Below, in pieces: positions 20,979 through 23,975 of a DNA stretch of 40,371 bases (the first letter of the stretch is position 1; each line of letters opens with the position of its first letter). The notes under the pieces were generated by a model, which searched no databases, had not been told where the DNA came from, and was given only the letters and a program-made list of their open reading frames with translations. The stretch spans positions 1 through 40,371 of the forward strand of contig CBDCWP010000020.1 in NCBI GenBank assembly GCA_965223505.1, in the 5' to 3' direction. This stretch comes from Planctomycetota bacterium. Its GTDB lineage: Bacteria; Planctomycetota; PLA2; JAEUHO01. A program made the position numbers and the translations under genes.

Positions 20979-20986
20979 GTAAGAAA
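20979..20986. repeat. Target-site duplication, left copy (GTAAGAAA)
   Basis: Identical 8-mer at 23313-23320; each copy abuts a terminal inverted repeat. Confidence 0.9.
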
Positions 20987-21096
20987 GGTGCTGGGTTACT
21001 TTGAATTGGGCCGTTCGACCGACCTGCGCGGCCCGTTTGAAGGGCCGCGATGAGCAAGACTACGCATCTCCGTGGTCGCCATGGTTCAATGGCGGC

Positions 21097-21354
21097 ATGC
21101 CTAAACGGTCAAGCAAGAAACAGGCCGCCCGCAAGCGCGAGGATACCAACCAAGCCGCTGCGCGGATCGTCCGCCAGACCACTGGCCAGCAGAAGCCCGC
21201 AGACGAGGGGAAGAACCCCGCTGCGGTCGCGCTTGGCCGTCTGGGCGGGCAGAAGGGCGGACCAGCCCGCGCCAAGAGCCTGTCTGCGGCTCGCCGTAAG
21301 GCCATTGCTAAGAAGGCTGCGCAGGCTCGATGGGGGAAGCGCAAGTCAAAGTGA
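21097..21354 (+). CDS. Small highly basic protein (85 aa) with KGG-like motif, likely nucleic-acid binding
   Basis: MPKRSSKK...DTNQAAARIV...KNPAAVALGRLGGQKGGPARAKSLS...IAKKAAQARW. From recall, it resembles small proteins found beside this transposase type. Confidence 0.8.
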   Translation: MPKRSSKKQAARKREDTNQAAARIVRQTTGQQKPADEGKNPAAVALGRLGGQKGGPARAKSLSAARRKAIAKKAAQARWGKRKSK

Positions 21355-21417
21355 TCCCACGGGCCACGATTTGCCGACAGGGTGGATATACTTCCGGGCC
21401 CACCTTGGAGATAGAGC

Positions 21418-21732
21418 GTGCCTGACGAACAGAAGGCAGAGAAGCAAGTCCCGATTAAGTGGGACATCCCCGATGACGAGGGGCCGGTCCACATCTCAAA
21501 CATGCTTGTGCAGCATACGGACCACGAATTCCTCGTCCGCTTTTTCCAGGTTTACCCACCTCTCTTACTCGGAACCGACGAGGAGAAAGAGGAGCAGGCC
21601 AAAGAGATCAAGCATGTCGAGGCTCGCTGCGTTGGGCAGTACGTTCTGGCGCCTGAGCGCATTCAGAAGTTCATTGACGCGCTCACCACGAATCTTGGCC
21701 GCTGGAACGCAAAGCAAAAGCAGGGGGACTAG
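21418..21732 (+). CDS. DUF3467-like small protein
   Basis: GGAG RBS and GTG start. The pattern PVHISNMLVQHTDHEFLVRFFQ...VGQYVLAPERIQKFIDAL resembles DUF3467 (recognised by eye). Confidence 0.65.
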   Translation: MPDEQKAEKQVPIKWDIPDDEGPVHISNMLVQHTDHEFLVRFFQVYPPLLLGTDEEKEEQAKEIKHVEARCVGQYVLAPERIQKFIDALTTNLGRWNAKQKQGD

Positions 21733-21734
21733 AA

Positions 21735-22004
21735 GTGAACATTGTCGCAGATCCGAAGTCCATCATAGAGGCCGACTCGTCCCTAAGGATCGACCTCGCG
21801 CCGATTGCAGCTTCCACCTTCTTGATCTCAACCGGGGCGGGCGACGTGGATAGTGCGGACAACCAAGGGCCGACACACGAAGAGCTGATTGAGATGGCCC
21901 GCGAGTATCCGGCGCTCTCGGATACGGAGATTGACGAACTCTGGGAACTGACGTCGAGGTTCGACGAAACCCGCGCCCGTGCTGAGGCTGACCCGGATTT
22001 TTAA
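21735..22004 (+). CDS. Small acidic protein, candidate antitoxin
   Basis: 89 aa with an Asp/Glu-rich helical C-terminal half. Starts 2 nt after the upstream stop and ends 9 nt before the toxin-like gene. Confidence 0.55.
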   Translation: MNIVADPKSIIEADSSLRIDLAPIAASTFLISTGAGDVDSADNQGPTHEELIEMAREYPALSDTEIDELWELTSRFDETRARAEADPDF

Positions 22005-22013
22005 GCGGCCACT

Positions 22014-22379
22014 ATGCTTGAAGAGGCTCCGTTCTTCCCCATGCGAGCCTTCTGGGCGTTAGCAGGTGCCAAGAAGCGCTTGGTGATCGTTCTTGCGCCC
22101 AAGAAGCCGGGCGGCGCGCATCCAGTCATTTACGGAACTGGTGCTCCGCCTTGGGCGGGCCGACAGTGGGCCGAGAAGTGGCACCTGCTTTTGCATCTTC
22201 GCAAAAACGATATCCCCCAGTTCAGGTTGTCGAAGGACACGTTTCTCTATCTTGAGACAATTCCAACCGGGGGAATCCCAGACGACCCAAGACGGAAGTT
22301 CCGTGGACTTGTGCCAATGGACTTCTGGGTTGATCTACGCAAGATGATTCGCCAGCACATGAACCACAAGCCCCCGTAG
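22014..22379 (+). CDS. Divergent MazF/PemK-like protein (putative endoribonuclease toxin)
   Basis: Order and spacing of RAFWA, KKRLVIVL, VIYGT, LSKDTFLYL and KFRGLVPMDFWVDLRKMI parallel the MazF pattern GDIxWV / KxRPxLVL / VVPIT / GLxKDS / IGxLxxxxMxxV. Confidence 0.55.
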   Translation: MLEEAPFFPMRAFWALAGAKKRLVIVLAPKKPGGAHPVIYGTGAPPWAGRQWAEKWHLLLHLRKNDIPQFRLSKDTFLYLETIPTGGIPDDPRRKFRGLVPMDFWVDLRKMIRQHMNHKPP

Positions 22380-22383
22380 CCGC

Positions 22384-22416
22384 TTGACATTGCTTGATCG
22401 CTCAAGCATAATGTCA
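22384..22416 (+). promoter_or_regulatory. Sigma70-type transposase promoter overlapped by a palindromic operator
   Basis: TTGACA (22384-22389), 17-nt spacer, CATAAT (22407-22412), 6 nt, then ATG. TGCTTGA-tcgc-TCAAGCA palindrome (22391-22408). Confidence 0.8.
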
Positions 22417-22418
22417 TT

Positions 22419-23303
22419 ATGAATCGACTAAGCGATAGGCGACGCGCGCAGATTCTGTCGTGTCTCGTGGAAGGCATGAGCATTCGTGCCACGTCGCGGA
22501 TTGCGGGCGCAGCCAAGAACACGATTCAGAAGCTGAGCCGGGACGTGGGGATCGCCTGCGGCCTCTTTCAGCATGAGCGGCTGCGCAATCTGCCTTGCAC
22601 ACACATTCAAGCCGACGAGGCGTGGGCGTTCTGCGGCATGAAGGAGCGCAACGTGCCTCGGGACAAGCAGGGCGTGTTCGGCTATGGCAACGTGTGGGTC
22701 TGGACGGCCCTGTGCATGGACACGAAGATCGTCCCGTCCTGGGTGCTCGGCAACCGCGACCAAGAGGCAGCCATGGCGCTGCTGTGCGACCTACAAAAGC
22801 GGCTGGCCCACCGCATCACATTGAACACGGACGGGCTAAGGGCGTACCACACAGGCGTCGTCGTGGCCTTCGGTGGGGACGTGGACTACGCCCGCGTCGT
22901 CAAGAACTTCAGCACGCCCAACAGACGTTGGAGTGGTGTCGACAACCGTTACTCGCCGCCGATCGTCACCAACGTCAAGCGCGAGCGCGTCTGCGGCAAT
23001 CCCAAGGTGGCCGAGGCCAGCACGTCCTACGTCGAGCGCTTCAACCTGGGGCTCAGGATGGGCATGCGCCGCATGACTCGCCTCACCAACGGCCACAGCC
23101 GCAAGGTCGAGAACTTCGGCTACGCCCTCAACCTGCACTACACGCACTACAACTGGTGCCGCAAGCACGAGAGTCTGAACGGCGCGACACCCGCGATGGC
23201 CAACGGGCTTACCAGTCGCGTCTGGACCACAAAGGACCTGATCGGCCTCCTACCCGCATGGAATAGGGACAAAGAGCCCAAGAAACAGGCGATTTCAAAC
23301 TGA
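22419..23303 (+). CDS. IS1-family DDE transposase (single ORF, N-terminal HTH)
   Basis: HTH LVEGMSIRATSRIAG..KNTI; catalytic IQADE, LNTDG and TSYVERFN..LR..MRR..R. Stop codon lies inside the right inverted repeat. Confidence 0.9.
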   Translation: MNRLSDRRRAQILSCLVEGMSIRATSRIAGAAKNTIQKLSRDVGIACGLFQHERLRNLPCTHIQADEAWAFCGMKERNVPRDKQGVFGYGNVWVWTALCMDTKIVPSWVLGNRDQEAAMALLCDLQKRLAHRITLNTDGLRAYHTGVVVAFGGDVDYARVVKNFSTPNRRWSGVDNRYSPPIVTNVKRERVCGNPKVAEASTSYVERFNLGLRMGMRRMTRLTNGHSRKVENFGYALNLHYTHYNWCRKHESLNGATPAMANGLTSRVWTTKDLIGLLPAWNRDKEPKKQAISN

Positions 23304-23312
23304 CCCAGCACC

Positions 23313-23320
23313 GTAAGAAA
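23313..23320. repeat. Target-site duplication, right copy (GTAAGAAA)
   Basis: Identical to 20979-20986. Confidence 0.9.
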
Positions 23321-23357
23321 CACCATAAGAAACATTATCAGACGTTCTCAGGGGGCT

Positions 23358-23884
23358 GAATCACGGGCGACGCTGGGCGACCATGGGCCCACTCCGACCC
23401 CCGGAAGCCGGTCCGACGGCTTCGCCACCAGCCCCCTGAGTACGTCTGATGAATGTTCTGACGGAGGCACCCGTCGCGATCCGTGCGCCGAATCACGGGC
23501 GACGCTGGGCGACCATGGGCCCACTCCGACCCCCGGAAGCCGGTCCGACGGCTTCGCCACCAGCCCCCTGAGTACGTCTGATGAATGTTCTGACGGAGGC
23601 ACCCGTCGCGATCCGTGCGCCGAGTCACGGGCGACGCTGGGCGACCATGAGCCCACTTCGGCCCCCGCAAAGCGCTCCGACGGCTCCGCCACCAGCCCCC
23701 TGAGTACGTCTGATGAATGTTCTGACGGAGGCACCCGTCGCGATCCGTGCGCCGAATCACGGGTGACGCTGGGCGACCATGGGCCCACTCCGACCCCCGG
23801 AAGCCGGTCCGACGGCTTCGCCACCAGCCCCTGAGTACGTCTGATGAATGTTCTGACGGAGGCACCCGTCGCGATCCGTGTCGC
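23358..23884. repeat. Tandem array, 4 copies of a 132-bp structured unit
   Basis: Copies start at 23358, 23490, 23622 and 23754. Copies 1 and 2 appear identical. Copy 3 has about 9 substitutions in its first half. Copy 4 has one substitution, a 1-nt deletion and a diverged end. Confidence 0.95.
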
Positions 23885-23975
23885 CTCGGGCAGTCTCCGC
23901 TGTCGGCTCCGTACGGGCCGAATCCCGTACATAGCGGGCTACCTATGGGCGGGCGGGAATGCCGATAGCGACTCC

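Follow-up and report, generated by a model that had tools for sequence, protein, structure and literature searches.

A candidate three-gene toxin-antitoxin-type module headed by a divergent DUF3467 protein in the cargo slot of an IS1-family insertion sequence from a Planctomycetota bacterium

Three-component toxin-antitoxin systems differ in where the additional gene stands: in toxin-antitoxin-chaperone (TAC) systems the chaperone is encoded by the last gene of the operon, and in the omega-epsilon-zeta and PaaR-PaaA-ParE systems the antitoxin does not itself bind DNA, that function being provided by the first gene. Insertion sequences (ISs) with passenger genes are recognized in ISfinder under the concept of the "transporter IS". 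The present study analyzes three small open reading frames, ORF1, ORF2, and ORF3, in a 40,371-nucleotide stretch of DNA (hereafter the window; positions 1 to 40,371 of contig CBDCWP010000020.1, assembly GCA_965223505.1) from a Planctomycetota bacterium. Patterns detected are consistent with ORF1-3 being a three-gene toxin-antitoxin-type module, for addiction or against phages, that is a passenger in the variable slot of an IS1-family element, and we place the probability of this reading at about 0.58. A preliminary description of the same genes had proposed a DUF3467-like protein, an acidic protein, and a cryptic MazF/PemK RNase in a three-gene toxin-antitoxin or defence module; it overlooked that they are IS1-family cargo.

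ORF1-3 sit within a 2,326-bp IS1-family insertion sequence at 20987-23312. The left terminal inverted repeat (IRL, 20987-21015, + strand), a 29-nt arm beginning GGTGCTGGGT..., is 79% complementary to the right terminal inverted repeat with which it pairs (IRR, 23284-23312, - strand), and the same 8 bases, GTAAGAAA, directly flank both ends as target-site duplications (20979-20986 on the left and 23313-23320 on the right). In the IS1 family, terminal repeats start with GGnnnTG and the target duplication is 8-9 bp. The repeats here begin GGTGCTG, and 20987-23312 has both of these terminal features. On the + strand between the repeats stands first ORF0 (21097-21354), encoding a very basic protein (isoelectric point, pI, 12.0) of 85 amino acids from the ATG at 21097; it is kept in this IS family, and its longest frame starts from a TTG at 21001, inside the IRL. 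ORF1-3 follow, and after them an IS1-family-type DDE transposase of 294 amino acids (22419-23303, + strand). The transposase matched the NCBIfam model for the IS1 family (NF033558) at E 4.3e-15 and 56.2 bits, under the cut-off of 100, with weak Pfam matches to DDE_Tnp_IS1 and rve_3, and among its relatives in plasmid records (24-48% identity) 7 of 12 were annotated "IS1 family transposase". GC content is 55-59% in the interior of the element versus 65-72% in the flanks.

The element is present twice. In a six-frame search, the same genome proved to contain an identical ORF3 on a different contig, and a DNA search showed that the repeated unit is 20987-23312, with the second copy at about 26588-28918 of contig C32. 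That copy has its own, different 8-bp target duplication, GGGTTTCG, and its identity with the window copy starts exactly at 20987. The two copies are identical over 20987-22594, spanning ORF0 and ORF1-3. The transposase of the second copy differs by one substitution and five 1-base insertions, four of which lengthen short homopolymers, and the frame is broken in the assembly; this could be either real decay or assembly error. It is unlikely that the two copies are an assembly duplication, because contigs of two public sequencing runs span both IS junctions of the window copy with zero differences. The structure is that of a mobile element, and the IS1-family element looks active. Element DNA was not found in the genomes of 40 relatives, which gave just short, weak matches to the ORF0 motif and the transposase.

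Some further observations concern the element and its surroundings. In a run from a different study (X5), contigs match 23076-23330, i.e. the right end of the IS plus 18 nt of flank, with no difference; the same insertion is present in a second data set, probably from the same strain. Just ahead of the transposase ATG, a site at 22384-22412 (+ strand; TTGACA-17-CATAAT) resembles a sigma-70 promoter, agreeing with the consensus at 11 of 12 positions; the resemblance is one of consensus alone, with 1 such site found against 0.6 expected in shuffles. Because the site ends 6 nt before the ATG at 22419, the transposase mRNA may be leaderless or nearly so. At a distance of 46 bp from the right IS end begins a tandem array of 4.0 copies of a 132-bp unit (23358-23885, 94% matches), which contains many overlapping, spurious-looking ORFs on both strands.

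Within the element, the three tightly packed, co-oriented genes of the preliminary description were confirmed, all on the + strand, with 2 nt between ORF1 and ORF2 and 9 nt between ORF2 and ORF3. ORF1 (21418-21732; 104 amino acids, GTG start) is the first gene of the module. ORF2 (21735-22004; 89 amino acids, GTG start) is acidic, with 21 D+E versus 6 K+R and a pI of 4.05, and stands in the antitoxin position. ORF3 (22014-22379; 121 amino acids, ATG start) is basic, with a pI of 10.4, and stands in the toxin position. This is the layout of a type II toxin-antitoxin pair, in which small genes are tightly placed and the acidic one lies upstream of the basic one. GC fractions at the first, second, and third codon positions of the called frames are.67/.29/.72 for ORF1,.61/.44/.70 for ORF2, and.60/.43/.66 for ORF3, a coding pattern, whereas the overlapping alternative frames have their GC maximum at codon position 2. 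Because of this pattern, together with homologues for ORF1 and ORF3, the frames appear to be more than chance; for ORF2, a putative gene, codon pattern and position are the only grounds. ORF1 and ORF2 are present among the predicted proteins of a 5.8-billion protein collection, in which ORF3 itself was not found.

Related elements show what usually occupies this position. One genome per species was scanned, yielding 351 transposase relatives, and the best 80 (at most 52% identity, from many phyla) were kept with their flanks. By tblastn (E<=1e-3), 55 of the 80 loci have ORF0 ahead of the transposase and in the same orientation, with a gap of 288-3499 bp between the two. It is a conserved component of this IS1-family group, with the C-terminal motif "...GG.KGG.ARA..LS...R..IA.KAA..RW". 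Terminal repeats were sought in 54 ORF0-bearing loci, and 23 had paired repeats that agreed at no fewer than 16 of 22 positions (consensus GGTAGTGGGTCAGTTTGAAAT), while 16 of the 54 combined family-type inverted repeats with a perfect 8-bp target duplication, giving element lengths of 1,949-3,963 bp. The layout of the element family is IRL, ORF0, variable cargo, transposase, IRR. A plasmid of Mesorhizobium loti has the same layout, its ORF0 counterpart being annotated "histone H1".

The cargo slots held 194 candidate ORFs, of which 125 were run against Pfam and 72 against PADLOC. At that coverage, PADLOC recognized defence genes in the slot of 17 of 55 loci. PD-Lambda-2_B was found in 11 of them (L013, L014, L027, L041, L048, L055, L060, L066, L071, L080, and L084) with E values from 1e-39 to 6e-51, RmrA in 2, and RmrT, HEC-04, a type II methyltransferase fused to HNH, and PDC-S23 (Fic) in 1 each. 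The PD-Lambda-2_B homologues are of the helix-turn-helix (HTH) plus M78-peptidase type and are accompanied by a gene of about 160-180 amino acids; in 3 loci HigB-like toxins, recognized by Pfam, adjoin them. Further cargo identified by Pfam included PIN_10 with DUF433/HTH_66, SNase, SDH-type proteases, P63C, nSTAND1, and a ParA-like ATPase, with the remaining slots containing ORFs without annotation. The slot is rich in toxin-antitoxin-type and anti-phage genes, and therefore a similar role for ORF1-3 is supported by their position, although position is no proof. At the PD-Lambda-2_B loci, whole known defence systems are thus housed in a 3-kb insertion sequence.

The second line of evidence comes from ORF1 and its relatives. 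The match of ORF1 to Pfam DUF3467 (PF11950) is sub-threshold, with 19.6 bits and E 9.3e-4 over profile positions 10-85 of 92, missing the gathering score of 25 bits, yet ORF1 is 36-46% identical to proteins that pass the cut-off, so that its preliminary designation as DUF3467-like holds. An alignment of ORF1 with 6 canonical DUF3467 proteins by hhalign was weak (E 0.027), a word-indexed protein search returned only ORF1 itself, and there were no matches in plasmids or viral contigs. Sampling of DUF3467 genes in the phylum of the window gave 6 matches in 5 of 60 relatives and matches in 85 of 401 sampled genomes, and 75 loci were analyzed with their flanks. At one of these, L176, the protein (104 amino acids) is 40% identical to ORF1 over 92 amino acids (BLASTP, E 1e-31) and passes DUF3467 with 37.1 bits. 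A metagenome scan with an alignment of ORF1 and the L176 protein added 12 loci at 36-46% identity; several loci being identical, these and L176 amount to 8 distinct modules. All 5 of the ORF1-like metagenome proteins that were tested pass the DUF3467 cut-off (36.8-38.9 bits). These sequence comparisons show ORF1 to be a divergent member of DUF3467.

A confident model of ORF1 was obtained with AlphaFold2 (AF2) from 77 sequences, including 76 DUF3467 sequences (pLDDT 89, pTM 0.65). Its strands span residues 28-33, 38-46, and 68-77; a helix is inserted at 54-63, and another, long one (79-103) closes the C-terminus. Foldseek against the PDB gave nothing at E<=1e-3. With VIA-align the top match was COMM (Z 5.5, root-mean-square deviation 3.3 A, 59 residues), followed by PUR-alpha (Z 5.2) and PC4 (Z 4.0), all of them under the noise mark of Z about 8. 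The predicted fold is a small sheet-plus-helix unit of a kind that usually pairs, and no firm function follows from it.

ORF1-like genes recur at the head of three-gene modules. All 7 modules with visible downstream DNA have a second gene, of 115-167 amino acids, within a few bases, and in all 6 with a visible third gene this is likewise tightly placed; it belongs to a family of 92-100 amino acids in 5 modules and encodes a PIN-domain protein in 1, with 27.6 bits, above its Pfam cut-off. The 92-100-amino-acid family aligned by hhalign with 28 HicA proteins of relatives over 62 columns with a probability of 51% and E 1.5e-4, compared with E 0.056 and 0.49 for controls. Second genes had weak matches to PHD_like antitoxins in 2 of 6 cases, and NCBIfam gave chance-level matches only for the second and third genes of the modules. 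L126 and L127, from two genomes of the taxonomic family to which the window belongs, each have a more distant DUF3467 gene, a small ORF, and a PemK_toxin gene in succession, the last with 30.2 and 27.1 bits against a cut-off of 23.1. A profile of this DUF3467-linked PemK variant found matches in 5 of the 401 genomes of the phylum, the source genome itself among them. ORF1-like genes thus recur ahead of genes from at least three known toxin families.

Mobile contexts were seen at some of these loci. The modules of L212 and L216 each adjoin a transposase from the family of the window's IS transposase (39-42% identity), and no IS ends were recognized there. The family inverted-repeat consensus, allowing up to 5 mismatches, was not found in the ten loci searched, namely seven ORF1-like metagenome loci (L205, L207, L208, L210-L213), L216, and the two contigs with DUF3467-PemK triads (L203, L204). 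At L212 (511-979, - strand), two small ORFs (99 and 62 amino acids) come after a more distant relative of the transposase and share its strand, a gene order that differs from the ORF0-cargo-transposase layout. The L203 triad of DUF3467 gene, small ORF, and PemK (contig C122, 5350-6850) lies in a low-GC patch (58-62% versus 65-80%) and adjoins a short frame on the other strand, which we take to resemble the C-terminus of an IS1595-type transposase. Because of this low-GC patch and the frame alongside, L203 suggests another mobile context.

Under the favored reading, the basic ORF3 would be the growth-inhibiting effector, the acidic ORF2 would neutralize it through direct binding, and ORF1 would be a conserved third component, kept while the unrelated toxin-antitoxin couple is swapped. 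Toxicity of ORF3, neutralization by ORF2, and the role of ORF1 are all inferred. Two roles for ORF1 appear about equally probable. It may be an adaptor or stabilizer of the antitoxin that binds the S/T/A-rich N-terminal part, similar to SecB in TAC systems even though the fold appears to differ and the gene comes first; a long part of this composition was read directly in the sequences of ORF2 and of every second-gene product. Alternatively, it may regulate the operon, as the first gene does in omega-epsilon-zeta or PaaR-PaaA-ParE. To judge by the cargo of related elements, the module might stabilize the IS in its host, give the host protection against phages, or do both.

Co-folding of ORF2 and ORF3 was graded as weak support for a pair, with a median ipSAE of 0.35 (runs of 0.23, 0.44, and 0.35) and 0.01 for the best of 3 controls. 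The mark used is reached by 116 of 157 solved complexes and by 2 of 215 mismatched pairs, but at values of 0.60 or lower it is reached by only 18 of the 157 solved complexes, and by both of the passing mismatches. At least 38% of contacts agreed among the runs. The predicted complex is thus compatible with binding and does not show it.

Several results weigh against the toxin-antitoxin reading. Neither ORF2 nor ORF3 had a match in Pfam, PADLOC, NCBIfam, or PHROGs. (The sole PADLOC match for the three genes was a chance-level one of ORF1 to Cas10b, E 0.031.) A homologue search with ORF2 returned only ORF2 itself and the ESM Atlas gave no usable match for it; against the second-gene family of the related modules it reached E 0.43 by hhalign. 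ORF3 appears unrelated to the HicA-like third-gene family (hhalign, E 0.09 and 0.056); neither ORF2 nor ORF3 has profile similarity to the corresponding genes of the related modules (E 0.09-0.43). A single homologue of ORF3 was found: searching 1.84 billion representatives with HMMER gave two matches, one of them true, namely P0003 (106 amino acids), which is 50% identical over ORF3 residues 4-66 (E 3.4e-10). The other, P0002 (1821 amino acids), aligned in 24 weak stretches and was set aside as an artefact of tandem repeats. The predicted ORF2-ORF3 complex consists of low-confidence folds, with partner pLDDT values of at least 42. The HicA-like assignment is itself moderate, with 15 bits to Pfam HicA_toxin in 2 of 5 third genes and nothing in 3 of 5, and PDB profile searches with the third-gene family, as with the second-gene family, gave nothing useful. 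Finally, most DUF3467 genes are not linked to toxins. In the phylum 3 of 75 DUF3467 loci (L126, L127, L176) precede a toxin-antitoxin-like pair, and canonical DUF3467 genes (L191, L192, L193, L195, L125, L128) lie immediately upstream of GAF-HlyD membrane-fusion genes or between OEP and HlyD genes. Because only these 3 loci show a pair while others lie in export loci, the toxin-antitoxin link belongs to a DUF3467 subfamily and not to the whole family.

An alternative explanation, and the one originally offered, is that ORF3 is a divergent endoribonuclease of MazF/PemK fold, with its catalytic Arg in KKRLVIVL and Thr in VIYGT, and that ORF2 is a non-canonical antitoxin. We consider this unlikely. 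PemK toxins do occur in the same position after DUF3467 genes at L126 and L127, but profile alignment of ORF3 and P0003 with those two DUF3467-linked proteins gave E 0.3 by hhalign, and with 24 PemK proteins of relatives it gave a probability of 0.2-0.4% (E 0.16-0.24). A profile of the same 24 proteins scored ORF3 at -2.0 bits with hmmsearch --max. Pfam PF02452 (gathering score 23.1 bits) did not match ORF3 at E<=1, a six-frame PF02452 search of the window's genome had no ORF3 match at E<=0.01 while control genomes gave matches, and a PDB profile search with ORF3 had 0 matches at E<=10. None of the alignment methods put ORF3 onto a PemK/MazF profile, and the MazF motif order claimed for it was not confirmed. 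An AF2 model from the two-sequence alignment has seven strands and then a C-terminal helix, which would suit a MazF, but at a pLDDT of 45.7 this strand pattern is unreliable and the lack of any Foldseek match at E<=1e-3 is meaningless. The sole pointer to PemK is a lead from a protein language model: in an ESM Atlas feature search ORF3 scored 0.93 for the top three clusters, the third of which carries PemK_toxin on 16% of its 61 members. That score level is attained by 4-10 of 100 shuffled proteins, and although the ten best family-bearing matches of ORF3 share one family or clan, those of a third of shuffled proteins do likewise. A PemK-type fold is possible for ORF3, but improbable. A search for homologues of similar length found nothing, viral contigs and plasmids (tblastn) had none, and a metagenome scan with ORF3 and P0003 gave 238 pattern matches and zero confirmed. 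Because the PemK sequence tests fail and it is unrelated to the HicA-like family, ORF3 is treated here as a putative orphan protein in the toxin position. The wider proposal of a three-gene toxin-antitoxin-type module with a DUF3467-like component is supported by the recurrence of ORF1-type genes ahead of HicA-like, PIN, and PemK genes, whereas the MazF identity of ORF3 is unsupported.

It is less probable still that ORF1-3 are some other passenger or accessory set, for instance proteins that bind nucleic acids or have regulatory functions and so influence transposition or processes of the host. This would fit with the fact that no toxin or antitoxin family was recognized in ORF2 or ORF3, with the export loci of canonical DUF3467 genes, and with the weak likeness of the ORF1 fold to COMM, PUR-alpha, and PC4 (Z 4.0-5.5), the last two of which bind single-stranded nucleic acids. 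However, counterparts of ORF1, ORF2, and ORF3 were absent from the best 80 of the 351 related IS loci (tblastn, best E 0.36), and therefore the three genes are not transposition machinery. In addition, close homologues of ORF1 are found away from any transposase, ahead of PIN or HicA-like genes, and the same slot in relatives is filled by defence and toxin-antitoxin systems. That ORF1 is genuine while ORF2, ORF3, or both, lying downstream, are accidental or decayed frames is very improbable, for although ORF2 has no homologue, ORF3 (in contrast to ORF1 and ORF2) is itself missing from the 5.8-billion collection, and no clear Shine-Dalgarno sequence could be read directly for ORF3, the codon-position pattern is present in the called frames and not in overlapping ones, ORF3 is conserved in P0003 over its initial 66 residues (50% identity), the 2- and 9-nt packing mirrors that of related modules, and the co-folding score exceeds controls.

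The toxin-antitoxin reading could be extended, although tentatively and with more doubt than confidence. The DUF3467 subfamily might be a hitherto unrecognized, promiscuous third component of toxin-antitoxin and defence modules, a SecB-independent counterpart of an "addiction chaperone" recruited, like SecB, from the protein-export machine; it might serve at least four unrelated toxins (HicA-like, PIN, PemK, and ORF3), with ORF3 founding a new toxin family and the IS1-family elements of ORF0-cargo-transposase layout acting as dedicated shuttles for defence cargo. An origin in the export machine is proposed because canonical DUF3467 genes adjoin GAF-HlyD/SecA-like exporter genes.

In the full-text literature, with subscription journals and ISfinder/TnPedia outside its scope, no paper tied DUF3467 or PF11950 to toxin-antitoxin systems; likewise, with subscription journals outside its scope, none tied IS1-family transposases to PD-Lambda-2, RosmerTA, or defence islands, and none was found on ISMhu11. 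Supplementary tables of large toxin-antitoxin surveys, which lie beyond the literature covered, may list DUF3467, and ISfinder/TnPedia accounts of IS1 subgroups with passenger genes may already cover the ORF0-cargo layout. On the favored reading the locus would be a tripartite toxin-antitoxin module moved as IS cargo, with an orphan toxin candidate and a third-component family not reported in the literature covered. If the favored reading is true, there are several implications. First, DUF3467 would acquire a function open to test, as an exchangeable companion of toxin-antitoxin pairs, its partners including a candidate orphan toxin for which public data contain hardly any relatives. Secondly, a widespread IS1-family element would have one exchangeable slot for anti-phage systems (PD-Lambda-2, RosmerTA, HEC-04, restriction-modification), making such IS elements a simple marker for new defence genes and a means for defence genes to spread inside a genome and from one genome to another.

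Like MazEF/PemIK (PF02452), the module has a small acidic gene followed by a basic gene for about 120 amino acids, and PemK follows DUF3467 in two genomes of the window's family; unlike that system, ORF3 fails every sequence test for PemK and ORF2 has no MazE/AbrB or ribbon-helix-helix (RHH) domain. The order of third component, antitoxin, and toxin, with an antitoxin that has no recognizable DNA-binding domain, is that of omega-epsilon-zeta and PaaR-PaaA-ParE, but ORF1 has no RHH or HTH motif and the candidate toxin is unrelated to zeta or ParE. The analogy with TAC systems drawn in the preliminary description finds no support at the level of the fold. In TAC systems with SecB-like chaperones (PMC5105189, PMC6377645, bioRxiv 10.1101/2024.02.24.581848), there are likewise three small co-oriented genes, a conserved third protein with unrelated toxin-antitoxin pairs, and an extra, probably disordered segment on the antitoxin-position proteins; the extra segment here is N-terminal and not the C-terminal ChAD element of those systems. 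ORF1 is DUF3467 and not SecB, DUF3467 being its only Pfam match at E<=1; its nearest folds are COMM/PUR/PC4-like, at a noise-level Z of about 5, with SecB absent among the 50 best matches listed. Tn3-family transposons (PMC7157771) similarly carry toxin-antitoxin genes as passengers inside a transposable unit beside the transposition genes, but the vehicle here is of the IS1 family and combines one variable slot with a basic ORF0 that is conserved. Lastly, ORF1-3 match none of the PADLOC models for PD-Lambda-2 and RosmerTA, yet these multi-gene, toxin-antitoxin-like systems (bioRxiv 10.1101/2022.05.12.491691, 10.1101/2022.05.11.491447) are similar in kind to the module proposed here and occupy the same cargo slot in related IS.

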